Positions 27-47,139 of a stretch of DNA of 64,000 nt are shown here, piece by piece; the first letter of the stretch is position 1, and every line of letters starts with the position of its first letter. Under the pieces are notes generated by a model. The model was not told where the DNA came from and made no database searches. It saw only the letters and a list, made by a program, of their open reading frames with translations. The translations under genes were made by a program, and so were the position numbers. Source of the DNA: Gemmatimonadales bacterium (lineage in GTDB: Bacteria > Gemmatimonadota > Gemmatimonadetes > Gemmatimonadales > GWC2-71-9); assembly GCA_035997125.1 (NCBI GenBank), contig DASYIX010000115.1, positions 29-64,028 on the forward strand, given 5' to 3'.

Positions 27-491
27 ATGACTTCGCCGCTCCGCTTCTGCGTCCGCCGGACCTTGGCCTCGGAGGCGCGCGGTGCGGCAACGCTGGTGAC
101 TCTTCGGTTGCCCAGCGATGTAAACTGCATCGAAGAGGCCGTGGAGCTGGTCACCTTCCATTGTCTCGCCGGCCACGAAGCCACTCAGACCATCCGGTTC
201 CGCCTGCGAGTGATACTGTCGGAGGCGCTCAGCAATGCCATCGTGCGGGGAAACTGCGAAGACCGGACCAAGTGGGTCGATGTGCGCGTCGAGCTTGTGC
301 CCGATTCGATCAGTGTCAACGTGACCGATGAGGGACCCGGTTTCGACCCCACCACCGTGCCCGAGCCGATCCGGCCGGAGCAGCTCGACGAAGCCCGCGG
401 GCGGGGCCTCTTTCTGATTCGTAAGCTCGTCGACGCCGTGCAATTCAACCAGCAAGGAAACTCCATCTGCATGATACTGCGCCGTCCGTAG
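27..491 (+). CDS. anti-sigma regulatory factor / RsbW-SpoIIAB-like serine protein kinase (GHKL ATPase fold)
   Basis: 154-aa ORF with an N-box-like '[11 protein letters not shown]' and G-boxes '[10 protein letters not shown]' and '[11 protein letters not shown]'. A PP2C phosphatase gene follows, giving a partner-switching context. Confidence 0.75.
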
Positions 492-28650: not shown

Positions 28651-28681
28651 CCCGATTGACTGTTGAAACAGGAGTGAACAT

Positions 28682-29083: not shown

Positions 29084-29132
29084 AGCTACGGGGCCGCCGT
29101 CTGGAGTTCGGTCGAGCAGTGAATCAGATCCG

Positions 29133-31072: not shown

Positions 31073-31225
31073 CACAAGGGCCGTCGCATTTGACCCGGTT
31101 GCACAACCGGAACGAGTGTCCCACATTCGCTCTGTTTCCGAGGGATTGGGCTGCGCAGTATCGGAGGTACCGTGGAACCCGAGCGGTCATGCACCGCGTC
31201 GAGGGCGAGATCGCCGAGTACCAGG

Positions 31226-32047: not shown

Positions 32048-32188
32048 CCCGGGGTTTGTTGCGTCCGTGAAGCATCCGAAGAGTGGCGCGGGCCAGGTAT
32101 CCTTTCGGTATAATGCCAGATCAATCACTATCCCGGGGAGATGTGGGAGGTCATGTGACCTTCAGCACCCAATGCAAGGAGCCTCGAA

Positions 32189-32341
32189 ATGATTCGGAAA
32201 CTGGCTTCCGGTGGGTATCGGCTTTATTCCAGAAAAAAGGACCCCAAGACCGGGAAGCGCCGCAACCTGGGCACCTTCAAGACCAGGGCCGCTGCTGAGA
32301 AGCACGAGCGGGCCGTGCAGTACTTCAAGCGCGGCGGTTGA
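32189..32341 (+). CDS. small basic protein (50 aa), hypothetical
   Basis: AAGGAG lies 7 nt upstream of the ATG. The product is 'MIRKLASGGYRLYSRKKDPKTGKRRNLGTFKTRAAAEKHERAVQYFKRGG'. It is below the ORF-track size cut-off, and its stop overlaps the next ORF. Confidence 0.6.
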   Translation: MIRKLASGGYRLYSRKKDPKTGKRRNLGTFKTRAAAEKHERAVQYFKRGG

Positions 32342-32658
32342 GCATGCGCGCCCTTTTCCTGCTGGTTGTCATCGCCGCCGGCTTGGTCGGAGCTTCGTAT
32401 GCCGGCGCGCGTTTTACCGCCGGCCGCCTGATGGGACCGGACGCGAACCAGATGGCATCGCCAACGGCTCGTTTCGCCTTCGCCGGAATCCAGACCCTCC
32501 GCGCCAAGCCGCGTGGGTGGATCCTGTCATACCCATCTGCCACGGAATTCGGACCGCATGGCGCCGAGATTTACGTCAGCCCCGTCGGCCGCCTCCTCGG
32601 CACTCGGCCGGCCGACCTCGCCCGTCGAGTAGAGGCACGCCAGGCTGCCGAACCCTGA
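32338..32658 (+). CDS. membrane-anchored hypothetical protein
   Basis: N-terminal TM/signal segment 'ALFLLVVIAAGLVGASYAG'. 106 aa (TTG at 32338 or ATG at 32344). Confidence 0.5.
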   Translation: MSMRALFLLVVIAAGLVGASYAGARFTAGRLMGPDANQMASPTARFAFAGIQTLRAKPRGWILSYPSATEFGPHGAEIYVSPVGRLLGTRPADLARRVEARQAAEP

Positions 32659-32676
32659 TTTGATATGGAGGACTCA

Positions 32677-32910
32677 ATGGCTCGCTGCGAGATCTGCGGA
32701 AACGACTACTACCTGTCATTTCAGGTCGTCGCCGCCGGGCAAACCCATACCTTCGACAGCTTCGAATGTGCCATTCACAAGCTGGCGCCGGCATGCGATC
32801 ACTGCGGCTGCAAGATTATAGGTCATGGCATAGAGGCGAAGGGCACGTTCTTCTGCTGTGCCCATTGTGCTCGGGAGCGGGGAGTGAAGGCCGCGGTGGA
32901 TCACGTCTGA
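32677..32910 (+). CDS. small Cys/His-rich metal-binding protein (zinc-ribbon/metallothionein-like)
   Basis: 'MARCEICGNDY...FDSFECAIHKLAPACDHCGCKIIGHGIEAKGTFFCCAHCARE' has 9 Cys and 5 His in 77 aa. GGAGG lies 5 nt upstream of the ATG at 32677, inside the longer ORF-track call that starts at 32665. Confidence 0.6.
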   Translation: MARCEICGNDYYLSFQVVAAGQTHTFDSFECAIHKLAPACDHCGCKIIGHGIEAKGTFFCCAHCARERGVKAAVDHV

Positions 32911-32929
32911 GACGGCAGGATGAAAGCCT

Positions 32930-32957
32930 GAGGGCCCGGTGGGATCACCGGGCCCTC
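32930..32957. terminator. perfect 12-bp hairpin between convergent genes (bidirectional terminator candidate)
   Basis: GAGGGCCCGGTG-ggat-CACCGGGCCCTC. The minus-strand reading is followed by AGGCTTTCAT. Confidence 0.55.
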
Positions 32958-32977
32958 CGTGCACTATGGGCGATGGC

Positions 32978-34039
32978 CTACTGTCGGCAGGATGTCTTGG
33001 CGTGAGCCTTGGCTTTGTTCGACAGGTCGGTCATGGCGCTCTTGATGTCAGCCCGAGCGTAGTAGGTCTTCCCATACTGGTAGGTCCACAGGAAGAAGCC
33101 ACAGCCATAGGTGTTGTTCAGCAAGGCGTTTCCATAGGTGCGGAGTTCGGTCGCGCTCATGGCAGAGAGTCCGCTCGTGTACCCCCGGATCCCGCTGGAT
33201 CCGTTCCCACCGTCGAGGACGTTCATGCTCACGACCACCCCGAGTCCCTTACTCCTGGCTGACGCGACCTCGGAGGCGAGCCACTTTGCGGCGTCGCCCT
33301 TGCGGGAGGTGTACTGCGTCCACCCAGCATCGAGATAGGTGTAGGTGACCGGACTTGCCGCCAGCCAACTCGGCACTACCCGCACAACGGTAGGTACGGT
33401 CGGCCATAGCTGCTTACTGTACTTGGCCATTGCCTCCAGCGTCGCTTGGGAGATGATCTTCCCGCCCCACTTGGAAGCCCGATTGGGCTCATCGATCAGG
33501 ATGTGGGCGAGGACGGTCCCGTCGGCGATGTAGGAACCAAAATCAATCGCTTTGAAGCGGGCGACCATCGATTGCCACTTAGTCAGACTGAAGGTTCCAT
33601 CCCCGTTTTTTACCCAGGAGTCGGAGCCTCCAACAAGCTTGACTACCAGGCGGGCACCGCGCGCGCGCGCCGTGGAGAGCTCGATGAGCAGCATGTTAGG
33701 GCTGGGGACGCGTAACGCGCCGGTATGCAAAGGACCCAGCAGGGAAATGTCCAAGTCGTACGAACCAAAGACTATCCCGGGGGCTGCGGAGCCGGACAAC
33801 GCAATACCTGCGGCGCCCATCGTGTCTCCCGAAGGAACGGGAACCAAGGTGGAATCCACTGGAATGGCGGAGTCAGGAGCAACCGTCGAGTCCGTCGGAA
33901 CTGGCGCGGCGGCGGTAGGAGACTCGGTCGTCGGACCAACCCCATCGCTGCCGCTGCACGCCGCCAGAAACGCCATCAGTCCGATCGTGCTCGCCTGAAA
34001 CCAGGCCCTGCCATACAAGCGATTCTTATGGTAGATCAT
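32978..34039 (-). CDS. lipoprotein, hypothetical (possible glycoside-hydrolase-like barrel)
   Basis: The start at ATG 34039 gives 'MIYHKNRLYGRAWFQASTIGLMAFLAACSG' with a lipobox. A Thr/Pro/Ser-rich linker precedes a domain of about 270 aa. The gene is visibly more AT-rich than its neighbours. Confidence 0.6.
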   Translation of the reverse strand: MIYHKNRLYGRAWFQASTIGLMAFLAACSGSDGVGPTTESPTAAAPVPTDSTVAPDSAIPVDSTLVPVPSGDTMGAAGIALSGSAAPGIVFGSYDLDISLLGPLHTGALRVPSPNMLLIELSTARARGARLVVKLVGGSDSWVKNGDGTFSLTKWQSMVARFKAIDFGSYIADGTVLAHILIDEPNRASKWGGKIISQATLEAMAKYSKQLWPTVPTVVRVVPSWLAASPVTYTYLDAGWTQYTSRKGDAAKWLASEVASARSKGLGVVVSMNVLDGGNGSSGIRGYTSGLSAMSATELRTYGNALLNNTYGCGFFLWTYQYGKTYYARADIKSAMTDLSNKAKAHAKTSCRQ

Positions 34040-34540
34040 GAACGCACACACTTTCTCTCCCTCTGATGGGGAGGGCATGACCGCACACCGTTCGCTCCGG
34101 AGCGCGCTGCGGTCAGGGCAAGGCCGAGACGGTAGCAGGCCGACCAATTGGTCGCTGGGGCGAGAGCGTTTCCGGCCTTCGAATCAGCCGGAGGTCTGTT
34201 GATTTAAGTGGTGTTCGCCGAGCCGCTTACGGCTACAGTTCGCGACGAATGGACGCCTGCGTGGCGCCATCTCTTCTTTCCCCCGAGAGGGTGGGCTCGC
34301 GACGGGGACATTATACCCCCATGGGGTAGTCTTGTCAACCCACCAAATCAAGGGCTTCCGCGCTGCAAGCCGTCCGTTATCTCGTTGTCCTGATCACCGG
34401 GTTCATTGCGGGAAGCCGGTCGGTTGATGCGATCCGATCCTGGCGGGAATGGCATGCCTGGGCTATCCGCAACCCCTCGGGGGCCGACGCCTACCGCACC
34501 TTCTTTATGGGGAATGCAGCCGTTGCTCTGGTGAGCCTTC

Positions 34541-35446
34541 TCATTGCGGGTCTGGTGTGGTGGCTGCTGCGACCCGGGCGTTCCCTCCATCGGTAAGAAA
34601 GCGGACTCGGCCGGCAGGACTCCGGATCCAGACCGTGAGATACTTGCCATAGTCCGGGTCGCCGTCTTTGGGCGCGATGATCGCCTCGCCAATCGTCCAG
34701 CCCAGGTCGCCGCTCTTACCGGCGCCTGCCGCCACCGGATGCCAGCGCCACACCGCCGGGCCGGCCACCGCGCTTCCGATCGCTGCCGCTCCCCGGGTCA
34801 TCAGCCCGCCGCCGCCAAGGGTGAAGGACTCGGGCGCGGCCCAATGCCGAAAGGCCACTTCGGCGCCGCGCTTGCCGGCCAGTCGAGCAAAAGCAAGATC
34901 GGCGGCCACAAATGGCGCCACTGCGCCGGAAGCACGGGCCGGCTCCTTCGTGAGGGGCAATCCTGGTGGCAGAGCACCGGGCGGTATGGGTGCTACCCCG
35001 GTTACGAGGAGCGCGGCAATGGTCCAGCGTCCTTCGTCCCGGCGCCAGGTGGTGGTGTAGCGCCCAATTCGGGGCGGCGAATCGCCCCCGCGAGTGCTGG
35101 CGACGGCGATGCCCCAGGTCACTCCGAGCGTCGAGTCTCGGGCCAGCTTCAGTCCGAGGGGTTGCCAGGTGAGACGGAGCGAGTCGCGGTGGGGCAGGGC
35201 ATCGAGCACCTTCCGCAGCTCTTCGGTGCCGGCTCCGACCGGAGCGCCGGGCCAGAGCAGCACCGCCTCGCGATGCGCGTTTCCCAGTAGCGCCACAGCG
35301 AACCCCGAATCACTGCTCAGCTGCGACGCCGCGCGATCGGCCGCAACGAGTGCTGTTCGCTGGTCTTGAGCAAAGAGAGGGACGGAGAGGGTCAGCAGCA
35401 GGGCCGCCAGGGTAGCTGGCAATGGAGGTCGCATCAGGAGTGTCAT
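34541..35446 (-). CDS. secreted protein with two SnoaL/DUF4440-like repeats, hypothetical
   Basis: Signal peptide 'LAALLLTLSVPLFAQD'. Two similar halves each end in a 'W.R..G.W.I' / 'YLTVW' type motif. Confidence 0.5.
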   Translation of the reverse strand: MTLLMRPPLPATLAALLLTLSVPLFAQDQRTALVAADRAASQLSSDSGFAVALLGNAHREAVLLWPGAPVGAGTEELRKVLDALPHRDSLRLTWQPLGLKLARDSTLGVTWGIAVASTRGGDSPPRIGRYTTTWRRDEGRWTIAALLVTGVAPIPPGALPPGLPLTKEPARASGAVAPFVAADLAFARLAGKRGAEVAFRHWAAPESFTLGGGGLMTRGAAAIGSAVAGPAVWRWHPVAAGAGKSGDLGWTIGEAIIAPKDGDPDYGKYLTVWIRSPAGRVRFLTDGGNARVAAATTPDPQ

Positions 35447-35488
35447 TCCCCCCGTACGTTGGACGAGCCCTTCCGAGATTCAGCCGAC

Positions 35489-35875
35489 TTAGGAGAGCTC
35501 CTCAGGAGTGGCCGGCCGGAACAGGAGATCGAAAGCCAGAAACAGGGTCTTGGAGAACGGGTAGAGGAGGAACGGCGCCAGCACCATGAGCGCGATGCCC
35601 CCATACTGAAGCAACGTCCAAGGGGGATCGGGCCAGGAGATGACTAGGACTAGGACAAAAAGAATCGCAAAGATCAACTCCGATGCAATGATGTTGAACA
35701 TGTAGGAACCGACCTGGTAGCCGGACTCATGTCGCTCGAGAGGAATTCCGCAGACCGGGCAGTACTCCCGCATCCGGAACCAGGAGCGGAAAATCGGTCG
35801 CCCTCCGCAATTGGGGCAGCGCAGGCGCAGGGCTCGCCCAAAGAGGCGGAGGGCATATCCTACCATACGCTTCAT
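35489..35875 (-). CDS. DUF983 domain-containing membrane protein
   Basis: Zinc-ribbon 'RCPNCGGRPIFRSWFRMREYCPVCG' followed by two TM helices. Confidence 0.75.
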   Translation of the reverse strand: MKRMVGYALRLFGRALRLRCPNCGGRPIFRSWFRMREYCPVCGIPLERHESGYQVGSYMFNIIASELIFAILFVLVLVISWPDPPWTLLQYGGIALMVLAPFLLYPFSKTLFLAFDLLFRPATPEELS

Positions 35876-35913
35876 GAGTCAAACCTACACGCTGTGTCCT
35901 GAGAGGCGATGGC

Positions 35914-36429
35914 ATGCGGCGGCCAGTCATCGGAGTCATGGGGGCGGGTGAGCCGAGCCCGGGCTGCAGGACGGCAGCGCGTGAGCTCGGCCGTCTGCTG
36001 GCGGAACGGGGCTGGATCGTGCTCACCGGCGGTCGCCCGGAGGGAGTCATGGCCGCGGCGTCCGCCGGGGCCAAGCAAGTTCCCGGCAGTCTGACGCTGG
36101 GCATCCTCCCGGGAGTCTCCGGCGCCGGTCCCGATGTGGATGTGGCCGTGTTCACCGGTATGGGCGAAGCCCGCAACGCGATCAATGTGCTCACCAGTGA
36201 TGTGATCGTGGCCTGCGGGGTGGAAGGTCCGGGAACGCTCTCTGAAGTTGCCCTGGCGCTCAGGGCGGATAAGATCGTCATCCTACTGCAGGCGTCGGAG
36301 CCGGCCCGCTCGTTATTCAGGAGCCTCCCAACCGGTGGCAGGCTACTCGAAGCGGCCGCGCCGGTGGACGCGGTGCGCATTCTCGAGGAGAAGCTCGCGA
36401 TTCCTCGCGGAGCGCCGTGGCTCGGCTAG
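35914..36429 (+). CDS. TIGR00725 / LOG-SLOG family protein
   Basis: 'VIGVMGAGE...ARELGRLLAERGWIVLTGGRPEGVMAAASAGAK...GILPG...GMGEARNAINV'. Confidence 0.75.
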   Translation: MRRPVIGVMGAGEPSPGCRTAARELGRLLAERGWIVLTGGRPEGVMAAASAGAKQVPGSLTLGILPGVSGAGPDVDVAVFTGMGEARNAINVLTSDVIVACGVEGPGTLSEVALALRADKIVILLQASEPARSLFRSLPTGGRLLEAAAPVDAVRILEEKLAIPRGAPWLG

Positions 36430-36476
36430 TTTCGGTTCGGATGTAGTCCTCCCGAGATGAAGATACGGAGTGCACC

Positions 36477-36797
36477 ATGCTCATCTGCCAGTGGCATCTC
36501 GACATTGTCTACGGGAAACAGGCAGAAGCCCTGCGGGTCATGCGGGCTTGGGGGGCGGAGAAGTTCGCCAGCTCCGAATTTCGGAGGGCCCGCAACGCCC
36601 GCCTACTCGCGGGGCTGGTGGGGGCTTCTGCATCGCACCTGATTGACGAGTACACGTTCGAGTCGCTCGCCGACTTCGAGGCCGCGCTTGCCGGGATGGC
36701 CGGGCCCCAATTCAAAGCCCACTCTGACTCGCTGGCTCCGTTCATCGTTCCCGGATCCCAACATTGGGTGGTCTACCGGGTGCTGGAACAACCCTAA
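36477..36797 (+). CDS. hypothetical protein (ferredoxin-like alpha+beta fold suspected)
   Basis: 106-aa ORF with high-GC codon usage and no motif I recognise. Confidence 0.45.
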   Translation: MLICQWHLDIVYGKQAEALRVMRAWGAEKFASSEFRRARNARLLAGLVGASASHLIDEYTFESLADFEAALAGMAGPQFKAHSDSLAPFIVPGSQHWVVYRVLEQP

Positions 36798-36828
36798 GCA
36801 GCGGATCTCCATCGACTAGCGGCGGGTG

Positions 36829-36975
36829 GTGCCGCTGACGCTCTTTGTGCTGGGCTGGATCTTCCAGTTTGTAGGTCACGCGATTGAGGGAAAGCCTCCC
36901 GAATACCTCCACGACTGGCGCTTTCTGTTCGTGGGAGTCCGCTGGTGGGCGGCGAAGATTCGGGGACGAGCCTGA
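36829..36975 (+). pseudogene. C-terminal remnant of a DUF962 (Mpo1-like) membrane protein gene
   Basis: The 49 codons 'VPLTLFVLGWIFQFVGHAIEGKPPEYLHDWRFLFVGVRWWAAKIRG' match the conserved 'FQF.GH..EG.KPA' core and tail. Stops in the upstream sequence leave no N-terminal half. Confidence 0.45.
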
Positions 36976-36987
36976 CCGACCGCCCTC

Positions 36988-38904
36988 CTACCCCGTCCCC
37001 GAAGACTCGACGACATAGGCTTCCATCGCGAAGTACTCGGCCAGTCCCAGACGGTCGAGCTCCGCGGCCGTTCCCTTGTTGCGGGCCTCGACCCGCTGCC
37101 AGAACTCTCGTTCATCCGGTCCCGGGAAGGGCGCGGTGTCCTTCTGGGACTGGTGTTTGAAGATCGCCTGGATCTTGAGCCGCAGCTCCTCCTGCGACAG
37201 CGGCACCAGCCAGGTGGCTTCGGTGACCGGCCACTCCTGCCACGCGCCCCGGTAGAGCCAGACCTCCGGCCGTGGGTTCCCCGTACAGACGTAGTGCTCC
37301 AGCGCCTGCTCGACCGCCTCTTTGCAAACCCGGTGAGTTCCATGGGGGTCCGACAGGTCGCCGGCCACGAATACGAGATCGGGCCGGACCTCGTCGAGCA
37401 GGCTGCGCACGATGGCGATATCGTCCGCCCCGATGGGATCCTTCCGGACCTTGCCGGTGCGATAGAACGGAAGATTGAGAAACCGTGCGGCGCGGTCGTC
37501 GAGTCCGAGGGTGCGGATGCCGGCCACTGCCTCCGACTCCCGAATGATCCGCTTGGCGTCCTGCACCTCGGCAATGTCGACATCGCCGGGCCGTTTGCCG
37601 GCGAGGAAGTCAGTGACCCGGCGCCCCAGATCGGCAGCCGCGGCCTCGGGCAGGTGACGTTCCGCCGCCAGGCGGTGAATGAAATCGAGATGCCGGCGGA
37701 CGTCGTGATCGAAGACCGCCAGATTGCCGCTCGTCATGTAGGCGACGGTGATCTCATTGGCATTCGCGGCCAGCTTGTGCAGGATCCCCCCCATCGAGAT
37801 GACGTCGTCGTCCGGATGCGGCGAGAAACAAATCACCCGCTTGCCTCGGGGCAGCTTGGAGCGGCCCCGGATCTTGGCCCCGAGGGCGTTGAACACCTCT
37901 CCGTTCAGCGCGCCGGGGGAGCCGTATCGGGCGACCAGCGCGGAGAGCCGGTGTTCGGCATAATCCCGCTGAGTGAGCTTCAGGACGGCCTTGCCGGTCT
38001 GGTGAGACAGCCAGGTGACCGCGCGCACTACCAGGCTGCTGGTCCATTCGACCGATCCGAGCAGCCACGGCGTGGCTATCCGGGTGAGCGCCGCCGCGGC
38101 GGGGCGATCGAGATAAAACGTGGTGTTTGGGTGACGCTGCAAGAAAGTTGCGGCCACTTCATGATCCACCTCTCCTTCGACCGCCCGGCGCACGATGTCG
38201 GCTTTGTGCTCTCCGGTGGCCAGGATGAGAATCTCCCGTGCCTCGAAGATGGTCTCGACCCCCATGGTGATAGCTTCGCGGGGAACATTCTCCTCGCCGA
38301 AGAAGTCGGCTGCCGTATCCTTCCGCGTCACCAGGTCGAGCGTGATTACTCGAGTGCGACTTTCCGCGCCGGAGCCGGGCTCGTTGAATCCGATGTGCCC
38401 GGTCCGCCCAATCCCCAACAGCTGGAGATCGATTCCCCCCGCCGCCTGGATGGCGTGCTCATACCGCCGGCACTCTTCCTCCACCTGGTCCCGGCGAACG
38501 TCACCGCGAGGGAGATGGATGTTTGCTGGAACGATATCGAGCTGATCGAACAAGTTCTCCCGCATGAACCGGTGGTACGAGTGGATGCTCGCCGGATCCA
38601 TCGGGTAGTACTCATCCAGGTTAAAGGTGACCACGTCGGCAAAGCTGAATCCGTCTTCCTGGTGCATCCGGATGAGCTCGCGATAGACTCCGATGGGCGT
38701 AGACCCGGTGGCCAGGCCGAGCACGGCGCGTTGTCCGCCGGCTCGCTTGGCCCGGATGACGTCGGCGATGCGCTGGGCCACCAGCCGGCCAAGATGGTCG
38801 TGATCGTCCACGATCACCGTGCGAATGCGCTCGAGACCGGGGGATCCACTGGCAGGAGAGGCTGGAGTGCTCACGACTCCACGACCACGCAATCCATGGG
38901 CCAT
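36988..38904 (-). CDS. nagB: glucosamine-6-phosphate deaminase, long form fused to a PIG-L/LmbE-type deacetylase domain
   Basis: N-terminal 'LGLATGSTPIGVYRELI...FNLDEYYP...LLGIGRTGHIGFNEPGS'. C-terminal 'VICFSPHPDDDVISMGG' (the LmbE motif). 638 aa. Confidence 0.88.
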   Translation of the reverse strand: MAHGLRGRGVVSTPASPASGSPGLERIRTVIVDDHDHLGRLVAQRIADVIRAKRAGGQRAVLGLATGSTPIGVYRELIRMHQEDGFSFADVVTFNLDEYYPMDPASIHSYHRFMRENLFDQLDIVPANIHLPRGDVRRDQVEEECRRYEHAIQAAGGIDLQLLGIGRTGHIGFNEPGSGAESRTRVITLDLVTRKDTAADFFGEENVPREAITMGVETIFEAREILILATGEHKADIVRRAVEGEVDHEVAATFLQRHPNTTFYLDRPAAAALTRIATPWLLGSVEWTSSLVVRAVTWLSHQTGKAVLKLTQRDYAEHRLSALVARYGSPGALNGEVFNALGAKIRGRSKLPRGKRVICFSPHPDDDVISMGGILHKLAANANEITVAYMTSGNLAVFDHDVRRHLDFIHRLAAERHLPEAAAADLGRRVTDFLAGKRPGDVDIAEVQDAKRIIRESEAVAGIRTLGLDDRAARFLNLPFYRTGKVRKDPIGADDIAIVRSLLDEVRPDLVFVAGDLSDPHGTHRVCKEAVEQALEHYVCTGNPRPEVWLYRGAWQEWPVTEATWLVPLSQEELRLKIQAIFKHQSQKDTAPFPGPDEREFWQRVEARNKGTAAELDRLGLAEYFAMEAYVVESSGTG

Positions 38905-39113
38905 GCAGGGCCCCGATCATGTCCCCGGAGACCAGGGGTAGGCCGGGTGGGTCTCCCAGGCGCAGCCGTTGGTAGCTGAGTCTCTCAAATCGCCCCCCAT
39001 CGTGTCATTCTTCGGGCCAGGCCCAGCGTGCTCGCGTTGCCGCCCGGCCGTCTGCCCGTTCCCGAAGTGGCGGAACTGGCGTAGAATGAAGCGGGCTTGA
39101 TGAGCGAGGCTGA

Positions 39114-39560
39114 GTGTACCGAGAACCGACCCTACCGACCGCAGAGGACGCTTCCCCGCGAGAGCTGTGGCGGGCTAGCTGGAAGCTGCTTCTCATGCTG
39201 GCGGCCCTGTGCCTGCTGGTTGTGCCACTGGTTCGCGAGCTGCCCCTGGGGCAGAGTAGCCGAACCGGCATCGTGGCCTGGGTGCTGGTCGGCCTGGCCT
39301 TGTACTGGCTCTATGCCGGCATGGGATATCGTCCGCTCCTGCTGCTCCAGCTTTTGCTCTTTTCGGCGGCGGCAGCGCTCCTGAGCGCCAAGCTGCTGCT
39401 GGTCGCGGTGGACGTCAAAGAGCTCACCGTGCTCCGCTATTTCGCGCGGGGGATGATCCTGGTTGGAGCCGGTCTGGCAGGGGCAAATCTCGGCGCCATG
39501 CTGCTCACGCTCTGGCGACGATCGCGGGGCAACGCCCCGGTGAGGGAGAATCGTCCTTGA
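39114..39560 (+). CDS. membrane protein, hypothetical
   Basis: 148 aa with four hydrophobic helices. Its stop overlaps the TTG start of the next ORF. Confidence 0.5.
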   Translation: MYREPTLPTAEDASPRELWRASWKLLLMLAALCLLVVPLVRELPLGQSSRTGIVAWVLVGLALYWLYAGMGYRPLLLLQLLLFSAAAALLSAKLLLVAVDVKELTVLRYFARGMILVGAGLAGANLGAMLLTLWRRSRGNAPVRENRP

Positions 39561-39823
39561 TCTGCCGGATCTGGCATGGCTGGACCACGCCAGAGAATGC
39601 CGATGCATATGACTCCCTCCTCCGCAAGGAAATCTTCCAGGGCAATTCCGCGCGCAAGATCGCTGGCTACCTCGGCATTGATCTGCTCCGGCGGGATCTC
39701 GACGGCTCCCATGAGTCTTCACCGGCAAAGGCGCGCACGGCGTCGAGCGACTCGAGCCACATGACGGTGATAAACTTCTCCGTGGGGCCTAGCTCTCTCG
39801 TCCATACGGAGCGCCGTCCATGA
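39557..39823 (+). CDS. ABM-like (dimeric alpha+beta barrel) protein gene carrying an inverted 84-bp internal segment; probably inactivated
   Basis: The N-terminus 'MICRIWHGWTTPENADAYDSLLRKEIF...GIDLLRRDLDG' is family-typical. The expected continuation 'GPTEKFITVMWLESLDAVRAFAGEDSWE' is encoded on the opposite strand at 39788->39705. The ORF stays open through the inverted part. It has a TTGA overlap upstream and an ATGA overlap downstream. Confidence 0.6.
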   Translation: MICRIWHGWTTPENADAYDSLLRKEIFQGNSARKIAGYLGIDLLRRDLDGSHESSPAKARTASSDSSHMTVINFSVGPSSLVHTERRP

Positions 39824-40269
39824 TGCTCCGTTGGCTGCTCGCCTCGTTCCATCTGCTGGCACTCGGCCTGGGGCTGGGCGCCGTCTGGGTGCGCGGCCGC
39901 GCGCTCCGGGGCCCGCTCGACCCTGCGGGATTTCGGCGGGTCTTCCTTGCCGACGCGGTGTGGGGATTGGCCGCTCTGCTCTGGATCGGCACCGGTCTCT
40001 GGCGCCTGCTCGGCGGAACCGAGAAGCCAACCGACTATTACCTGCACAGCCACGTGTTCATGACGAAGATGGCTCTGCTTCTCCTGATTCTGGTCCTGGA
40101 GCTCCGGCCGATGATCACGCTCATCCGCTGGCGCACGCTCGTGGGGCGGGGAGAGCTGCCCGACACCCGGGTGGCGCCGCTCCTGGCCCGCATCAGCTTT
40201 ATCCAGGCGGGGATCGTCGTCCTTATGGTGTTCGCTGCCACCGCAACGGCCCGAGGACTCCATGGCTAG
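39820..40269 (+). CDS. DUF2214 family membrane protein
   Basis: 149 aa, four TM helices, 'LRWLLASFHLLALGLGLGAV...YYLHSHVFMTKMALLLLILVLE'. Confidence 0.6.
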   Translation: MMLRWLLASFHLLALGLGLGAVWVRGRALRGPLDPAGFRRVFLADAVWGLAALLWIGTGLWRLLGGTEKPTDYYLHSHVFMTKMALLLLILVLELRPMITLIRWRTLVGRGELPDTRVAPLLARISFIQAGIVVLMVFAATATARGLHG

Positions 40270-40588
40270 ACTCTCGATCCGGTTTGCTCTCGTCCCGCTC
40301 CTGTTGGCGCGGGTCGCTCCTGGCTATGCACAGTCCACCGACTCTCCCGACGGGGGAACGCTCCTGGTGGCGATCTTGATTCCGTCGGTCAAGTAGGGGC
40401 TCATGTGGACCAGGTTGTGGCGCTGGATGCCAGACCAAGTGGCGCAGTAGTGGTCTACTACGACAAGGCCGCCAAATAGCGACCGCCTTCTAAAGTAAGT
40501 TGTTCACCGCAGGCCGTATCGATTTATGCCAGCAATAGATAGACACTTGTCATCCAGTCATCGTTGAGGTATTTACCCGGAGCGCATT

Positions 40589-40882
40589 ATGCCGGCGTAC
40601 GTGGTTTTGAACGTGACGGTGCGGGAGCGGGAAGCCTACGACCGGTACAAGCCGTTGGCTGCTCAGTCCGTGGCTCTGTACGGCGGCCGCTACCTCGCGC
40701 GCGGCGGAGCTACCGAAACGCTGGAAGGGGAATGGCACCCCAGCCGATTCGTTATCCTTGAGTTTCCCACGGTAGAACGGGGCCGCGCGTGGTGGACGTC
40801 GCCGGAGTACGGTCCGGCCAAGGCGCTGCGGCAGAGCTGCGCCGACGCCGAGATGGTGCTGGTCGAGGGTGTGCCCGGCTGA
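40589..40882 (+). CDS. DUF1330 domain-containing protein
   Basis: 'MPAYVVLNVTVREREAYDRYKP...YGGRYLARGG...VILEFPTVERGRAWWTSPEY'. 97 aa. Confidence 0.8.
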   Translation: MPAYVVLNVTVREREAYDRYKPLAAQSVALYGGRYLARGGATETLEGEWHPSRFVILEFPTVERGRAWWTSPEYGPAKALRQSCADAEMVLVEGVPG

Positions 40883-40886
40883 CTCA

Positions 40887-40920
40887 CCCTTGCCCCTATC
40901 CAAGCGCAGGGATTTTTTTC
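40887..40920 (+). terminator. possible intrinsic terminator after the DUF1330 gene
   Basis: Imperfect stem CCTTGCCC../..GCGCAGGG followed by ATTTTTTTCTC. A T7 run is rare in this GC-rich sequence. Confidence 0.4.
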
Positions 40921-40939
40921 TCGCACGTGTGGAGGAGGG

Positions 40940-41287
40940 ATGGGGGAGCCGAATTTTGCGAATCTCATCGCCACTCTGAACTCGACGCTTCAGAACGTGG
41001 AAGCACGACTGGCCGGGAACCACGAGCCGGTCGAAGGGCTGGAAGACTTCAAGAGTGCGCTGGACGACATGCGGCTCCGGCTCTGGGGACTTCTTAGCGC
41101 CGCAGGTGCGGACGACTTCAAGGGTTTTCAGGAGCGGTTCCGCATCCGCCGGGCCACCGAGATGTGTCACGGCTTGAGCGGCGATCTGGGGACGGGGTCG
41201 CTCGGCCGGCGACACGCCGAGCTCACTGGCCTACGCGAGGCCGCGCTGGAGCTGAGTCGCAGCGTGGAGCGAGCCCAGCAGCATTGA
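40940..41287 (+). CDS. hypothetical protein (helical)
   Basis: 115-aa ORF with GGAGGAGGG upstream. Confidence 0.5.
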   Translation: MGEPNFANLIATLNSTLQNVEARLAGNHEPVEGLEDFKSALDDMRLRLWGLLSAAGADDFKGFQERFRIRRATEMCHGLSGDLGTGSLGRRHAELTGLREAALELSRSVERAQQH

Positions 41288-41305
41288 ACCGCAACTGGAG
41301 GAGTG

Positions 41306-41482
41306 ATGTCCAAACGTGACGATGCCCGGATTGCGGCGCTGGCCAAGAAGAACGCCGAAAAGGCAGTGCGGCCGAAACGCGACCGCGCGGCCCAGTTCGA
41401 TCCTACGTTGCGCCAGCGCCCTGCCGAAGAAGAACCCGAGACCGAGCGCCTTTTCAAGGAAATGAAACGCCGGGAATTCTGA
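41306..41482 (+). CDS. small charged protein (58 aa), hypothetical
   Basis: GGAGGAG lies 3 nt upstream of the ATG. The product is 'MSKRDDARIAALAKKNAEKAVRPKRDRAAQFDPTLRQRPAEEEPETERLFKEMKRREF'. It is below the ORF-track cut-off. Confidence 0.5.
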   Translation: MSKRDDARIAALAKKNAEKAVRPKRDRAAQFDPTLRQRPAEEEPETERLFKEMKRREF

Positions 41483-41490
41483 AGGGCGCC

Positions 41491-42129
41491 ATGACTCACT
41501 CGCCCCCTCGCCGGCCCGTCACCGCTGTTTTTGTCGCCCTCCTGCTCTTGGCCGGGGCCTTCCTCCTCATCACTGTCGCCCTTCGCCACCTCGCGCCCCG
41601 CGCTCGCGACCTGTTCCCGGGCCGAGGCGAGACCACGGTCAGCCACGGCGTGGTGGTGGAGCAGATGCAGGCGGTGGCCAAGCTGGTCAGCAGCGAGACG
41701 ACGCTGCGGGACGTGGTGGTCTACCAGAATCGGCGCCTTGGGTCCACCAAGCGATCGCTCGTGGTGGTGACGGGAAAGGTCCTCGCCGGCCTCGATCTCG
41801 ATGCCGGTACCGAGGTGAACATCGACCATCAAGCCCGGCGCATCGCCATCATGCTTCCGCGAGCCAAGGTGCTGGGTGTGGAAGTGACCAAGCTCCAGAC
41901 CTATGATGAGCGCAATGGCCTGTGGAATGTCTTCCGGCCGGAGGATCGCGACACGATTTATCAGCTCGCGCGGGACCAGCTGGTTGCGGCCGCCGGCGAA
42001 CTGGCGGTGACCGCGCACGCGGAGGAGAGTGCCCGCCGGCTGCTGGGAGCGCTCATCCACGCGGAGGGGTATAGCGTGGACGTCACCTTCGCCGGTCCCA
42101 AAGAGCTCCGAGCCAGCGACAGCACCTGA
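41491..42129 (+). CDS. DUF4230 domain-containing membrane-anchored protein
   Basis: N-terminal TM 'VTAVFVALLLLAGAFLLITVAL', then 'VAKLVSSETTLRDVVVYQNRR...LVVVTGKVLAGLDLD...ARRIAIMLPRAKVLGVEV'. Confidence 0.7.
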   Translation: MTHSPPRRPVTAVFVALLLLAGAFLLITVALRHLAPRARDLFPGRGETTVSHGVVVEQMQAVAKLVSSETTLRDVVVYQNRRLGSTKRSLVVVTGKVLAGLDLDAGTEVNIDHQARRIAIMLPRAKVLGVEVTKLQTYDERNGLWNVFRPEDRDTIYQLARDQLVAAAGELAVTAHAEESARRLLGALIHAEGYSVDVTFAGPKELRASDST

Positions 42130-42185
42130 GCCTCGAGCCCGCCGGCCGAACTGAACGCCAACGCACCGGCCATCCTGGGGTGTAC

Positions 42186-42422
42186 ATGAAGAAGAAGACT
42201 TTGGATCGGGTGACGCTGGACTATCGGGGTAAGCAGATCACCGCCGCCTTGAATCCGGGCGAGCCTCCGATGTGGTACGTCACCATCGGGGCCACCGCCC
42301 TCACCCGTTTTCCGGCGACACCGTCGGACGGCGAGGCCTCGGTGCGCGGCCGGGTGCTCGCCTGGCTGAAGGACCATCCCGATATGCTCGATCGGGATCA
42401 AATCGTACTCGGAGGCGGCTGA
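42186..42422 (+). CDS. hypothetical small protein, PPMWY-motif family (paralog 1)
   Basis: 78 aa: '...LDYRGKQITAALNPGEPPMWYVTIG...FPATPSDGE...RVLAWLKDH'. It is homologous to the next ORF. Confidence 0.55.
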   Translation: MKKKTLDRVTLDYRGKQITAALNPGEPPMWYVTIGATALTRFPATPSDGEASVRGRVLAWLKDHPDMLDRDQIVLGGG

Positions 42423-42525
42423 GCGGTTAGATTTCCCCCGCGCGGCTTTCACCCGCGCCCGGTGGCGAGCTTTTGCGCGCGGGGCCCCCGGATCTCGCGC
42501 GCCCGTTCACTCCAACGAGTCTTCC

Positions 42526-42798
42526 GTGAGCACCCATAAAGTCGAGCAACGTCGTTTACACCACCGCGGCCGCGAGTTTCACTTCGTATCCTACGATGCG
42601 CAGGTAGCCAACGAGCGCCGGGGCGAAGCCGCCATCCCGCCCATGTGGTATCTCATGAATGAGGGCAAGCGCCGCCCGGTCCTGCCGCACACCCCGGGTC
42701 AGGAGCTGATGGAGCTCGATGGCGCGCTCCTCCGTTGGGTTGACGAGCAGGTCTTCGGCGCCAGCGTCCTGCCCCTGGCCCGCCAGCGCCGGAAGTGA
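42526..42798 (+). CDS. hypothetical small protein, PPMWY-motif family (paralog 2)
   Basis: 90 aa: '...LHHRGREFHFVSYD...AAIPPMWYLMNEG...LPHTPGQE...ALLRWVDEQ'. Confidence 0.55.
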   Translation: MSTHKVEQRRLHHRGREFHFVSYDAQVANERRGEAAIPPMWYLMNEGKRRPVLPHTPGQELMELDGALLRWVDEQVFGASVLPLARQRRK

Positions 42799-42811
42799 TC
42801 CCGGCGGAGCC

Positions 42812-43300
42812 ATGACCCCGTCCTTCGACCCGCTCGATCCCGACACTCAGGTCTTCTGGCTCCGGCTGGGCACCGCAATTCTTTGCGGCGGGATCATCGG
42901 GCTCGAGCGGCAGCTCCGGGGCAAGGCCGCCGGTATCCGCACCAGCATCCTCATCTGTCTCGGCACCCAGCTGTTTGTCTCCCTCGGCTCCTCGTTCGGG
43001 GGGGAGCGGGTCGATCCCACCCGGGTGTTAGGACAGGTGGTGACCGGTATCGGGTTCCTGGGCGGCGGAGTGATCCTGGCGCGGGAAGGCGCGGTTATCG
43101 GGGTGACGTCGGCGGCCGTGATCTGGGTGCTCGCCGCGCTGGGATCGCTGATCGGCCTGGGCCATCTGGTGGCCGCCATGGTCCTCAGCCTCGTAACCGT
43201 CGGCCTGCTTACCGGGGTGGAGCTGCTGGAATCGGTTTTTCGCCGGCTCCGTGAGGGGGCCACGGACCGCGAGCTGGAACAAATCGACCTCCAGGAGTGA
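42812..43300 (+). CDS. MgtC/SapB family membrane protein
   Basis: 'LRLGTAILCGGIIGLERQLRGKAAGIRTSILICLG...GQVVTGIGFLGGGVIL'. I take the start at ATG 42812. Confidence 0.85.
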   Translation: MTPSFDPLDPDTQVFWLRLGTAILCGGIIGLERQLRGKAAGIRTSILICLGTQLFVSLGSSFGGERVDPTRVLGQVVTGIGFLGGGVILAREGAVIGVTSAAVIWVLAALGSLIGLGHLVAAMVLSLVTVGLLTGVELLESVFRRLREGATDRELEQIDLQE

Positions 43301-43313
43301 AGCGGGAGCGTCC

Positions 43314-43811
43314 ATGTCTCGCGTGCTGCTGATGCTCTTGAGCGTCCTTACGGCCTGCGGCGACCGGCCAGCACCAGATTCCCTGGCCCGCAACTCCGCC
43401 GACAGCGCCTTCGGCCTGGTCCAATCTCGGGGACACGTGGCGATGGGCGTGGACCAGTACACGTCCTCCCATCGCTTCGAGCCGCTCCCCGATGGCGGGC
43501 GGATCACGCTCGAGCGCAACGGAAACGACTCCGTCGGCACCGCGCAGATTCGAAGCCACATGCGCACGATTGCTCTGGCCTTCGAGCGGGGGGATTTCGC
43601 CCTGCCGGGCTTCGTGCACGACCGCGAGGTGCCCGGCACCGCGGTCATGAGGCAGCGGCGATCGCACATCTCCTACACCACCGATAGCCTTCCTCGGGGC
43701 GCCCAGCTCCGAATTCATTCCGACGACCCAGCCGCGGTCAACGCGATCCACCAGTTCCTCGCCTTCCAGCGCCAGGATCATCGGGTGGGGGTAGGCGGAG
43801 CCGCGCACTAG
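43314..43811 (+). CDS. lipoprotein, hypothetical
   Basis: 'MSRVLLMLLSVLTAC' lipobox. 165 aa. Its stop overlaps the next GTG. Confidence 0.6.
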   Translation: MSRVLLMLLSVLTACGDRPAPDSLARNSADSAFGLVQSRGHVAMGVDQYTSSHRFEPLPDGGRITLERNGNDSVGTAQIRSHMRTIALAFERGDFALPGFVHDREVPGTAVMRQRRSHISYTTDSLPRGAQLRIHSDDPAAVNAIHQFLAFQRQDHRVGVGGAAH

Positions 43812-44341
43812 TGGCGCAGTCCGGTGTAGTGCCGGCCGGCATTGCCGCCATTCTCGATCGTGACCTGCGGGCCCTCCGGCGCGAGGTCGAGGCCTATCCA
43901 GACGACCGCTCGCTCTGGCAGGGAGTGCCCGGAATCATCAACACCGGCGGCACCCTGGTGCTTCATCTCACCGGCAATCTTCAGCACTACCTGGGGGCCC
44001 TGTTCGCCGGGACCGGCTACGTTCGCGATCGGCCTGCGGAATTCGCCCGTCGCGACGTCCCTCGAGCAGAGTTGCTGCGTGAGATCGACGCCGCCCGTTC
44101 CGCGGTCAGGGCTGGCTTGGGGCGTCTTTCGGAGGCGCAGCTTGCAGCCGATTTCCCGGAGGCCATCGCCGGAGCCCGAGTCGCCACCAGCGACTATCTC
44201 GTCCACCTGACCACGCACTTCGCCTATCACCTCGGTCAGCTGGACTACCACCGCCGAGTCGTCACCCGCAACGAGAGCGGGGTCGGTGCCGTGCGGCCGG
44301 CGGAGCTGAGCTCGGCCCGTCCGCTGGAGGCAGGGGCATGA
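43811..44341 (+). CDS. DinB family protein
   Basis: Four-helix-bundle His triad context 'LVLHLTGNLQHYLG' ... 'HLTTHFAYHLGQLDYHRR'. 176 aa. Confidence 0.75.
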   Translation: MAQSGVVPAGIAAILDRDLRALRREVEAYPDDRSLWQGVPGIINTGGTLVLHLTGNLQHYLGALFAGTGYVRDRPAEFARRDVPRAELLREIDAARSAVRAGLGRLSEAQLAADFPEAIAGARVATSDYLVHLTTHFAYHLGQLDYHRRVVTRNESGVGAVRPAELSSARPLEAGA

Positions 44342-44535
44342 AGCCGGTGGCGCGCGAAGCGTTGCTGCTGGTGGGACTGGTTCTGTTGGTGGATGCTGTC
44401 TTCGTGGCCGCTTACTTCCTGGGTCATCTCCGAACCGTCTCGGATCCAGCAAAAGTGGCATTTACCGGGGTCTGGACGCTGGTGACGCTCGCGGTGGTGA
44501 TCCGGGGACTCTTGCGAGTCAGGAAGGCGCGCTGA
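44338..44535 (+). CDS. small two-TM membrane protein, hypothetical
   Basis: 65 aa with an ATGA overlap upstream. Its TGA overlaps the proposed glgX CTG. Confidence 0.5.
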   Translation: MKPVAREALLLVGLVLLVDAVFVAAYFLGHLRTVSDPAKVAFTGVWTLVTLAVVIRGLLRVRKAR

Positions 44536-46622
44536 AGAACCCACCTGCAGCGGCACCGCTCGGCGCCTTCTGGGACGGTCAGGGCACCAGCTTTGCCATT
44601 TACTCCGAGCATGGCACGAGGGTAGAGCTCTGCCTCTATGCCCAGCCAGGCGATGCCACCGATTCGAAGCGGATCGAGTTACCCCAGCGCCCCGACGGGG
44701 TCTGGCAGACTCATGTCTCGGATGTCCGGCCGGGGCAGGCGTACGGGTATCGAGTGCATGGACCCTACGCGCCGGACCAGGGTCACCGCTTTAATCCAGC
44801 CAAGCTGCTCCTCGATCCCTATGCGAGGGCGATCAGCGGATCGATCGCGTGGAACGAGGCGCTCTCGGGATCACCACCTCAGCTGCCGCAGATCGAACGT
44901 GACCTGATCGCCGATCCCGTCGACAGTGCCGCGGCCATGGCCAAGGCTCTGGTCATCGATCCGGCTTTCGCCTGGAACGGTGACCAGCCCCTGCGCACTC
45001 CGTGGGATCAGACCGTGATTTACGAGTGCCACGTCAAGGCAATGACCATGCTGCACCCCGGTGTGCCGGACGAGCTCCGGGGTACCTACCTGGGCCTTGC
45101 CAGTGATCCCATCATCGATCACCTGAAGCGTCTCGGTGTGACGGCGGTGGAGCTCCTGCCGGTGCACCACATGGTCACCGAGCGCCGCCTTGCCGCGTTG
45201 GAACTGACCAACTACTGGGGCTACAGCTCGATCGGATTCTTTGCTCCCGATACCCGTTTTGCCAGCCGCGCAGGGCCGGCCGGCCGCCAGGTGAAGGAGT
45301 TCAAGGCGATGGTCCAGCGGTTTCATGCGGCTGGTCTGGAGGTCATTCTGGATGTGGTGTACAACCACACGGCCGAAGGGAACCAGCTGGGGCCGACCCT
45401 GTCGTTTCGCGGGATCGACAACGCCCGGTACTATCGGCCTCATCCGGACGGACCTCGCTTCTATGCCGACTTCACCGGCTGTGGAAACACGGTGGATCTG
45501 CAGCATTCGCGGGTGCGGCAAATGGTCACGGACAGCCTCCGCTACTGGATCACGGAGATGCACGTCGATGGCTTCCGTTTCGATATTGCGCCGGTACTCG
45601 CCCGGGAGGGCGGCGGCGTCAACATGGCCGGCGAGTTCATGAACGAAGTCCGGCGCGACCCGATCGTTGGTCAGGCAAAGCTCATCGCCGAACCGTGGGA
45701 TTTGGGTCCCGACGGTTACCAGACCGGACGGTTCCCCGTGGGCTGGAGCGAGTGGAACGACAAGTATCGCAACAGCGTGCGGCAATTCTGGCGGGGCGAC
45801 CCGGGCCAGGTAGGCAATGTCGCCTCGCGCCTGTCCGGAAGCAGCGACCTGTACGAGGCGAGCGGGCGCCCGCCTCAGGCCAGCGTGAACTTCGTGACCT
45901 GCCACGACGGCTTCACCCTACAGGACCTGGTCAGCTATGAGACCAAACACAACCTGGCCAACGGGGAGGACAACCGGGACGGGACCGATTACAACCTGAG
46001 CCGAAACTGGGGTATCGAGGGTCCCGCCGAGTCGCCCCGCGTCCTCCACGTCCGCGAGCGGATGAAGCGGAACTTTCTCGCGACCCTGGCCTTCTCCCAG
46101 GGAGTGCCGATGGTCTCCCATGGGGATGAGGTAGGCCGCACGCAGTCCGGCAACAACAACGCCTATTGCCACGATGGTCCGCTGACCTGGGTGGACTGGC
46201 GGCTGACGCGGGAGCAGCAAGATCTGCTCGAGTTCACCCAAAACATCTTTGCCATCCGGGCGGCCACGCCGCTGCTGCGCCGAAGCAGCTTCTTCCGCCG
46301 CGCGCCCGAGGGTCCGGATCAGCTCAAGGATCTCACCTGGCTTCGATCCGACGGGAAGGAAATGACGGTCGCGGAATGGACCGATCCCGCCAACCACGTC
46401 CTCGGCATGTTGATTCACAGCGATCGTGCGGAGACTGAAGACTTATTGCTGCTGCTGAACTCGGGCGGTCGCTCCAAGCCCTTCACCTTGCCGCCGCCGA
46501 GTCATCCAGGGATCTGGACCGAAGTGGTGAACACCTCCAATGCCCCTCATCGTCGAGTATCCGAAGGGCTAGTGAACCTGGGGCCTCGCACGCTGATCCT
46601 GTTGAAATACGAGCGGGAATGA
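44532..46622 (+). CDS. glgX: glycogen debranching enzyme GlgX
   Basis: 'YGYRVHGPYAPDQGHRFNPAKLLLDPYA', 'DVVYNHT', 'GFRFDIA', 'EPWD', 'FVTCHDGFTL'. The conserved N-terminal domain 'PLGAFWDGQGTSFAIYSEHGTRVELCLY' lies upstream of the first canonical start (GTG 44754), so I propose the CTG at 44532. Confidence 0.88.
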   Translation: MKNPPAAAPLGAFWDGQGTSFAIYSEHGTRVELCLYAQPGDATDSKRIELPQRPDGVWQTHVSDVRPGQAYGYRVHGPYAPDQGHRFNPAKLLLDPYARAISGSIAWNEALSGSPPQLPQIERDLIADPVDSAAAMAKALVIDPAFAWNGDQPLRTPWDQTVIYECHVKAMTMLHPGVPDELRGTYLGLASDPIIDHLKRLGVTAVELLPVHHMVTERRLAALELTNYWGYSSIGFFAPDTRFASRAGPAGRQVKEFKAMVQRFHAAGLEVILDVVYNHTAEGNQLGPTLSFRGIDNARYYRPHPDGPRFYADFTGCGNTVDLQHSRVRQMVTDSLRYWITEMHVDGFRFDIAPVLAREGGGVNMAGEFMNEVRRDPIVGQAKLIAEPWDLGPDGYQTGRFPVGWSEWNDKYRNSVRQFWRGDPGQVGNVASRLSGSSDLYEASGRPPQASVNFVTCHDGFTLQDLVSYETKHNLANGEDNRDGTDYNLSRNWGIEGPAESPRVLHVRERMKRNFLATLAFSQGVPMVSHGDEVGRTQSGNNNAYCHDGPLTWVDWRLTREQQDLLEFTQNIFAIRAATPLLRRSSFFRRAPEGPDQLKDLTWLRSDGKEMTVAEWTDPANHVLGMLIHSDRAETEDLLLLLNSGGRSKPFTLPPPSHPGIWTEVVNTSNAPHRRVSEGLVNLGPRTLILLKYERE

Positions 46623-46630
46623 CTCGCCCG

Positions 46631-47038: not shown

Positions 47039-47139
47039 ATATCAGTACAATCTTGGCTGTCCTCCGGCAACAACGACACAGTCGCACCCGCTTCCCCCGG
47101 CCATCGGATGCGTTTCTTAGACTCTCGCCCTAGCGGCAC

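Follow-up and report, generated by a model that had tools for sequence, protein, structure and literature searches.

Microhomology-mediated break-induced replication, together with fork stalling and template switching, produces complex rearrangements that combine inversion, deletion and a short insertion at one site; microhomology-mediated events are usually described at scales of kilobases to megabases, mostly from eukaryotes and from stressed Escherichia coli. The four-point template-switch model is presented by its authors as generalising the bacterial quasi-palindrome mechanism of Ripley, and the types it distinguishes include the order 3-1-2-4 and its mirror 1-3-4-2 (Loytynoja & Goldman 2017, PMC5453318). 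Intragenic invertons are short within-gene inversions that recode a protein while keeping the open reading frame (ORF); they have an inverted-repeat pair and an invertase, both orientations in the population and two usable states, and they can become locked in one orientation when the repeats mutate or the invertase is lost (Chanin et al., bioRxiv 10.1101/2023.03.11.532203). Here we describe an inversion of 82 nt inside a small gene at positions 39557-39823 (plus strand) of a 64,000-nucleotide stretch from a Gemmatimonadales bacterium (assembly GCA_035997125.1, contig DASYIX010000115.1, positions 29 to 64,028 of the forward strand), which we refer to as the window. The gene descends from one encoding a protein of the ABM/IsdG fold. 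The rearrangement is genuine, apparently fixed and fairly recent; it has made the gene a pseudogene, it is of a known mutational kind, and it is very unlikely to be a genetic switch.

The window gene shares with four-point template switches an inverted fragment (point 2 to point 3) that is the reverse complement of nearby reference sequence (82 nt, 86.6% identity), the point order 3<1<2<4, in which an inverted spacer is flanked by the stretch from 3 to 1 in both orientations, little if any need of a prior repeat, and a result that linear alignment and annotation misread. It differs from the described cases in that the return point lies ~82 nt downstream, so that a large deletion accompanies the inversion, and in that the event lies inside a bacterial coding gene of an environmental metagenome-assembled genome (MAG), where it is apparently fixed. 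With microhomology-mediated break-induced replication it has in common the combination of lesions and ~3 nt of possible microhomology, although the whole event spans about 160 nt. Unlike an inverton, it has no significant repeat, no recombinase domain among the called genes within about 10 kb, a single orientation on record and an irreversible deletion. The locus, in an uncultured soil-type bacterium, is probably a well-resolved natural case of complex template-switch rearrangement over a short range, one that inverts a strand and a helix of a protein; understanding of any pathway is unchanged, and the interest lies in this example and in a caveat for annotation.

Anatomy of the rearranged gene

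As it stands, the gene is an 88-aa ORF with a TTG start, which overlaps by four nucleotides both the stop of an upstream 148-aa ORF (TTGA at 39557-39560) and the start of a downstream DUF2214 gene (ATGA at 39820-39823). The minus strand of the inverted block encodes GPTEKFITVMWLESLDAVRAFAGEDSWE. An earlier reading of the window, made from the letters without database searches (the sequence-only reading), had quoted this ORF, both overlaps and the minus-strand peptide, and all are present in the window exactly as quoted; only the range it gave for the inverted codons (39788 to 39705) is one base off, the codons running from 39789 to 39706 and the homology from 39798 to 39715.

The architecture is best described in the coordinates of an intact orthologous gene of 315 nt and 104 aa, which are used throughout. 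The window gene consists of forward nt 1-~160, the reverse complement of nt ~137-218, a filler of 11-13 nt and forward nt 301-315. The length balance (+23 nt duplicated, +11 nt of filler, -82 nt deleted) comes to -48 nt and is in frame, the gene shrinking from 315 to 267 nt. The best fit without indels runs forward to 39713-39716 (nt 1-157..160), then inverted over 39714-39797 (the reverse complement of nt 137-220), and then into the tail. When this model rearrangement is applied to the orthologous locus L001, with 11 nt of filler borrowed, the product is identical to the window gene at 232 of 267 nt without gaps. The component parts are:

39557..39823, plus strand: the 88-aa ORF as it stands, a predicted pseudogene remnant that gene callers record as an intact hypothetical protein
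39557..39715, plus strand: retained forward part, which covers codons 1-53 from strand 1 through helix 1 and strand 2 into the loop as far as invariant Glu53, as delimited by tblastn
39695..39715, plus strand: native loop in forward orientation (codons 47-53, DLDGSHE), forming the left arm of a weak inverted repeat
39713..39717, no strand: left junction, the switch from point 1 to point 2, with equal-scoring breakpoints between 39713 and 39716
39715..39774, minus strand: inverted core with strand 3 and helix 2, spanning codons 54-73 (FITVMWLESLDAVRAFAGED)
39775..39798, minus strand: the loop a second time, inverted (codons 46-53, RELGPTEK), forming the right arm; the minus-strand match begins at residue 46
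39796..39808, no strand: filler of 11-13 nt (TCTCGTCCATACG) at the right junction
39809..39823, plus strand: retained 3' end (GAGCGCCGTCCATGA, the terminal ..ERRP and stop) with the ATGA overlap onto the next gene, identical to L001 at 15 of 15 nt

Family homology is found on both strands. In tblastn, residues 1-53 of the intact orthologue P0002 match the plus strand at 39557-39715 (77% identity, E 3e-25) and residues 46-73 match the minus strand from 39798 to 39715 (86% identity, E 2e-11); residues 46-53 are covered by both matches, and residues 74-104 have no match in the window. At the DNA level the forward alignment of the L001 locus ends at 39727 and resumes at 39809, with an inverted 82-nt blastn match from 39795 to 39714 (86.6% identity, E 8e-22). 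Judged by these alignments, the resemblance of the minus-strand segment to the family is far beyond chance. The G+C content at codon positions 1, 2 and 3 of the block agrees with a coding origin on the minus strand, the minus frame (.64/.43/.79) resembling the coding sequences measured (.60-.72/.43-.52/.75-.84); the frame as it stands gives.43/.64/.79.

Protein searches tell the same story. The re-inverted sequence has 1074 homologues among 5.8 billion proteins, most of them 103-107 aa long and the best 85% identical over residues 1-74, whereas the same proteins align to the as-is sequence only over residues 1-53 (52-60% coverage); the score against P0001 drops from 134 bits re-inverted to 94 bits as-is. 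The alignments of the as-is protein stop near residue 53 and do not continue through residues 51-78: just nine of 181 BLASTP alignments pass residue 60, and these have at most 6 identities in residues 54-84. The sequence-only reading was right to expect an N-terminal match alone for the as-is protein, and right that the minus strand carries significant family similarity. The inverted piece is, however, the middle of the family (residues 46-73) and not its C-terminal end, and even the re-inverted protein is without family residues 74-100. The family boundary in the as-is protein also needs adjusting, as 'SHE' (residues 51-53) is still family and 'SWE' is junction sequence that is not.

The missing residues correspond to ~82 nt (Y74-R100 of P0002, ~27 residues), downstream of which the terminal ..ERRP is kept. 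Because residues 74-100 are deleted and the loop is duplicated, flipping the block back does yield an ORF, as had been reported, but cannot rebuild the gene. Loop codons 46-53 are present twice, forward as DLDGSHE (39695-39715) and inverted as RELGPTEK (39798 to 39775). The retained forward part is identical to orthologues at 122 of 138 nt over nt 1-138, and the inverted core is identical to the L001, L167 and L169 loci at 55 of 60 nt, its five differences from L001 being four synonymous and one non-synonymous. The loop copies are less well preserved, with 16 of 21 nt identical to the L169 loop in the forward copy (local alignment p=0.0003) and 15 of 21 identical to the L001 loop in the inverted one (p=0.02-0.04). 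A pure inversion with an adjacent deletion (type 1-3-2-4) is rejected on this ground, since the left block is forward loop and not inverted downstream sequence: it has no match to the reverse complement of orthologue nt 213-260 (p of at least 0.83).

The two loop arms are what the sequence-only reading described as an imperfect inverted repeat at the junctions (39702-39715 and 39778-39790). The arms exist, but they are weak (11 of 21 nt identical in sense terms) and are simply the forward and inverted copies of the loop codons. A repeat search (seed 6, minimum 8 nt) reported no pair flanking 39714-39797, and inverted-repeat arms near the block reach at most 18 nt, at 72% complementarity. By our own reading of the sequence there is a possible 3-nt microhomology, AGT, at the left junction. 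The filler at the right junction has no significant match on either strand of four orthologous genes; it holds a 7-nt CGTCCAT that is a direct repeat of 39814-39820 at the end of the gene.

Other donors for the inverted piece were considered within the window. A 104-aa gene at 32344-32658 is unrelated, a weak match at 60168-60269 lies inside a 417-aa ORF with no resemblance to the ABM family, and neither the family gene nor the segment occurs a second time within the 64 kb.

Some orthologues, such as that at L169:913-1230, carry a perfect 9-nt inverted repeat, CCGGCGGGA at nt 133-141 (in the LLRRE codons) and TCCCGCCGG at nt 235-243 (in the VVPPA codons), which roughly brackets the region rearranged in the window. 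Such a repeat could predispose to strand switching there. A plain inversion at this repeat is rejected as an account of the window gene, as the left junction that it predicts is not observed (p of at least 0.83).

The ancestral gene and its remnant

The intact family resembles the ABM proteins at the edge of what sequence profiles detect. Forty-four of 45 members match PF03992 (ABM) at E<=1, the best at 7.9e-07, though mostly under the gathering score (P0002 scores 21.9 bits, with a gathering cutoff of 23.1), and the family profile has no match among PDB sequences. An AlphaFold2 model of P0002 (predicted local distance difference test, pLDDT, 95.3) has strands at residues 2-10, 38-48, 51-60, 87-90 and 95-98 and helices at residues 12-32, 63-70 and 81-86, and its nearest structures by Foldseek are those of ABM proteins, IsdG, IsdI and MhuD among them, at template modelling (TM) scores of 0.6-0.73. 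On this model the intact orthologue has the ferredoxin-like strand-helix-strand-strand-helix-strand fold of the ABM/IsdG-like dimeric alpha+beta barrel proteins (PF03992; IsdG, IsdI, MhuD and the ActVA-Orf6 type), and JGI names the orthologues HmoA/ABM. Subfamilies that have been characterised have a homodimeric barrel and catalytic or ligand residues such as the Asn-Trp-His triad of IsdG. Compared with the known members, the orthologues form a divergent and uncharacterised branch, mainly from Gemmatimonadales MAGs, and the closest relatives have the gene coupled to one for a DUF2214 membrane protein. The description of the window gene as ABM-like therefore needs dividing: through near-threshold PF03992 matches and fold similarity it suits the family, but the window copy no longer qualifies. 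The ABM match anticipated for the re-inverted protein did not appear, neither it nor the as-is protein having a Pfam or NCBIfam match even at E<=10.

The rearrangement inverts strand 3 and helix 2 and deletes the helix at residues 81-86 together with both C-terminal strands, a part that includes the invariant A83, L87 and H96. With the same family alignment, AlphaFold2 gives the as-is protein a mean pLDDT of 51.9 and a predicted TM score of 0.39; residues 49-88 score below 50, and no fold is predicted for the protein. The 88-aa product is best regarded as that of a predicted pseudogene.

That the ORF is nonetheless open follows from the absence of stop codons in the antisense frame of the segment and a length change that is a multiple of three. 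Carried out in silico on 105 intact orthologues, the same rearrangement gives in 104 of them an ORF that runs uninterrupted to the native stop, so that no special explanation is needed for the open frame or the kept overlaps; in L001 it gives nearly the same nonsense peptide, ending in ..ESSPAKARTASSDSNHMTVMNSSVSPSSLVHTERRP and the stop. Random events of type 3-1-2-4 are open to the native stop in 17% of cases and in frame in about a third. At the right junction and filler (39806-39811) the sequence ACGGAG lies 8 nt upstream of the DUF2214 ATG, where orthologues have GCGAG; through the rearrangement the site has gained a slightly better Shine-Dalgarno-like motif.

The consequence for annotation is the one that the sequence-only reading foresaw, in that the product is on record as an ordinary protein from three sources of gene calls (NCBI, JGI/IMG and Logan). 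Pseudogenes of this kind escape ORF-based annotation and inflate the family counts of 'hypothetical proteins', and they can be mistaken for phase-variable intragenic invertons. They could be detected systematically by searching for split plus- and minus-strand matches to one family.

Origin and age of the allele

The identical 88-aa product is present in three assemblies made by three pipelines, namely the NCBI MAG contig (64,266 nt) from which the window is taken and the following two:

Logan SRR11678566 contig (L006/L170), 13.4 kb: same junctions
JGI/IMG metagenome 3300035671 contig (L171), 20 kb: same junctions

With one mismatch in 13.3 kb between them, the Logan and JGI contigs probably share a sample. 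Between the window and the JGI contig there are 14 single-nucleotide polymorphisms (SNPs) and one indel over 19.8 kb, including a synonymous A/G SNP at 39607, inside the gene. The junctions are common to at least two haplotypes and three assemblers, and their recurrence in three assemblies on differing haplotypes makes misassembly, one of the options left by the sequence-only reading, unlikely. A 1-nt indel at ~31183 separates the window from both other contigs and reflects either true variation or a mistake in one assembly's consensus.

None of the other loci retrieved shares the arrangement. Among 170 sequences (169 loci and the window), 163 have the family as a single same-strand full-length high-scoring segment pair in tblastn, and the split between plus and minus strands is confined to the window and the Logan contig as first retrieved (L006); L170 and L171, fetched later, are the same allele. 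Scans of genome and metagenome contigs gave 160 loci, all at 73% protein identity or less and none closer than the sister lineage (L001-L005), and the DNA of the P0001, P0006 and P0010 loci likewise provided no closer intact relative. The sister lineage, at ~90% DNA identity, has the same gene order, the same 4-nt overlaps and an intact 104-aa gene, and over 20 kb of comparison with the window the block is the only inverted segment. From these comparisons the inverted arrangement is derived and unique to this allele. Two further family members are frameshifted in MAG assemblies, one from Gemmatimonadales after ..AGTDYE (L037:1501-1830) and one from Thermoleophilia after ..EFSTMM (L076:1501-1830), which may be genuine pseudogenes or sequencing errors.

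The ratio of non-synonymous to synonymous differences (pN/pS) over the surviving codons is 0.13-0.21, next to 0.05-0.16 among orthologue pairs, with pS of ~0.27 since the split from the sister lineage. This low ratio and the near-identity of the inverted core point to purifying selection on the gene for most of the time since that split. The window copy departs from the family at 2-3 of 29 columns that are at least 98% conserved (I30N, MWF to MWL, and Glu53 to Lys in the inverted loop copy), while 106 of 118 family members depart at none of them and 2 of 118 at two or more, a modest sign of relaxed constraint. By these divergences the event is dated after ~10% DNA divergence from the sister lineage and before the ~0.08% divergence of the sampled haplotypes, and is fairly recent.

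We consider it probable that one complex rearrangement of the 3-1-2-4 template-switch type destroyed the ABM-fold gene and left the pseudogene. The ancestral state would be a 104-aa gene translationally coupled between the 148-aa gene and the DUF2214 gene. During replication or break-induced repair the nascent strand would have quit its template near nt 160 and run backwards along the complementary strand, copying it from ~218 to ~137; with perhaps a further short slip on the way, it would have gone back to its original template near nt 301. Ribosomes could still run through the remnant to the ATGA overlap with DUF2214. The order in which these switch points lie, 3 (~nt 137) < 1 (~160) < 2 (~218) < 4 (~301), is that of the type. 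Among the possibilities raised by the sequence-only reading, a fixed micro-inversion that killed the gene comes closest and is supported, but it is incomplete, as it lacks the inverted duplication of ~23 nt, the deletion of ~82 nt and the filler.

Several observations weigh against a single template switch. Such a switch predicts perfectly complementary loop arms at birth, yet the arms agree at only 11 of 21 nt while the core has no excess divergence, and each loop copy has several unique changes. These diverged arms could call for error-prone synthesis at the junctions, micro-switches, another template molecule or another history altogether. Error-prone repair synthesis is reported to leave clusters of substitutions next to junctions, and the window gene likewise has a cluster by its junctions. 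No template for the 11-13 nt filler was identified in the four orthologous genes, the putative microhomology at the left junction is just ~3 nt, and with the nearest intact relatives ~90% identical the breakpoints are good to a few bases. The apparent fixation, moreover, comes from consensus assemblies, two of them probably of one sample. A simple copying model is left with a small puzzle in the diverged arms and the filler.

The same features lend some weight to a multi-step history without template switching, in which a break or illegitimate recombination was followed by end-joining and by later deletions, insertions and point mutations: loop copies with unique changes sit awkwardly with one clean copying, the filler lacks a template, and the perfect 9-nt repeat CCGGCGGGA/TCCCGCCGG of an L169-type ancestor could have promoted rearrangement. 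We nevertheless think it rather unlikely. Within 110 nt it requires at least three events, independent of one another, that together change the length by a multiple of three, a plain inversion leaves the presence of codons 46-53 in both orientations unexplained, inversion at the 9-nt repeat predicts the left junction that was not seen, and a core free of neutral decay (55 of 60 nt; four synonymous differences and one non-synonymous) leaves little time for later mutations. Selection might have kept the rearranged frame open as a translational bridge to the coupled DUF2214 start, in which case ribosomes would cross 88 codons, ~31 of them no longer family, on their way from the upstream gene to DUF2214, and a better Shine-Dalgarno-like motif (ACGGAG for GCGAG) would have come with the junction. 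The 4-nt overlaps, intact at both ends and conserved in the sister lineage, and the in-frame length change fit such a role, but openness is expected anyway (104 of 105 simulated orthologues, and a prior of about a third for staying in frame), the as-is protein is not predicted to fold, it has changes at invariant positions, and no homologue with the new C-terminal half is found in 181 BLASTP alignments or among 5.8 billion proteins. Selection for a bridge is thus quite improbable, and its variant, a half-ABM/antisense chimera with a function of its own, is less likely still.

An artefact of assembly or library preparation, whether a mis-join in the assembly graph or an inverted chimera formed during amplification, is to be considered as all of the data are metagenome assemblies, two of them probably of the same sample, and because multiple-displacement amplification is known to yield inverted chimeras with deletions alongside. 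It is very improbable given that the NCBI, JGI and Logan pipelines give identical junctions on haplotypes differing by 14 SNPs and an indel, that no inverted repeat is long enough for a k-mer graph mis-join (the longest arm being the 18 nt at 72%), that the gene carries substitutions at otherwise invariant positions, as a decaying pseudogene would, and that no intact allele of this population is on record, the best homologue being 85% identical. A reversible switch, also suggested by the sequence-only reading, would be an intragenic inverton in which a recombinase flips the segment between an ABM protein and a recoded protein, giving phase variation. Recoding intragenic inversions of similar size do exist (57 bp in BT0375) and a locked single orientation can arise (bioRxiv 10.1101/2023.03.11.532203), and the inversion here is in frame with the ORF open. 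Flipping back, however, cannot restore a gene from which codons 74-100 are deleted, the open frame is expected by chance (104 of 105), and the arms (11 of 21) are no significant flanking repeat, none being found at seed 6. An invertase is often encoded close by, though it may act in trans. No recombinase Pfam domain occurs among the called genes of window 29558-49370 (about 10 kb on each side), all three assemblies have the one orientation, and no re-inverted product is found among the 5.8 billion proteins; we regard a switch as very improbable.

Neighbouring genes and other features of the window

The genes on either side of the remnant keep their places in the orthologous loci:

39114..39560, plus strand: upstream 148-aa gene, hydrophobic, without a Pfam match; TTGA overlap and gene order the same in orthologous loci
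39820..40269, plus strand: downstream DUF2214 membrane-protein gene (PF09980, E 4.6e-31); ATGA overlap and gene order the same in orthologous loci

Downstream of DUF2214, the interval 40277-40824 varies between lineages, with DNA identity of ~81% over 40396-40693. A DUF1330 gene at 40589-40882 (PF07045, E 4e-32) is present in the window and in the Logan and JGI contigs; in this interval L001 has no gene call and L002-L004 have a 100-aa one. Upstream, ~3.9 kb of the window (27632-31554), including a gene of the beta-lactamase family (PF00144; roughly 29657-31072), is without counterpart in a ~90%-identical sister contig (L172, 2107 to 2232).

A 608-aa ORF at 37153..38979 (plus strand) is fully antisense to a 638-aa ORF at 36988..38904 (minus strand). 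The gene called there in independent contigs (window 36988-38979) has PIG-L and glucosamine-6-phosphate isomerase domains, and the long antisense ORF at 37153..38979 is a trap for ORF-based calls.

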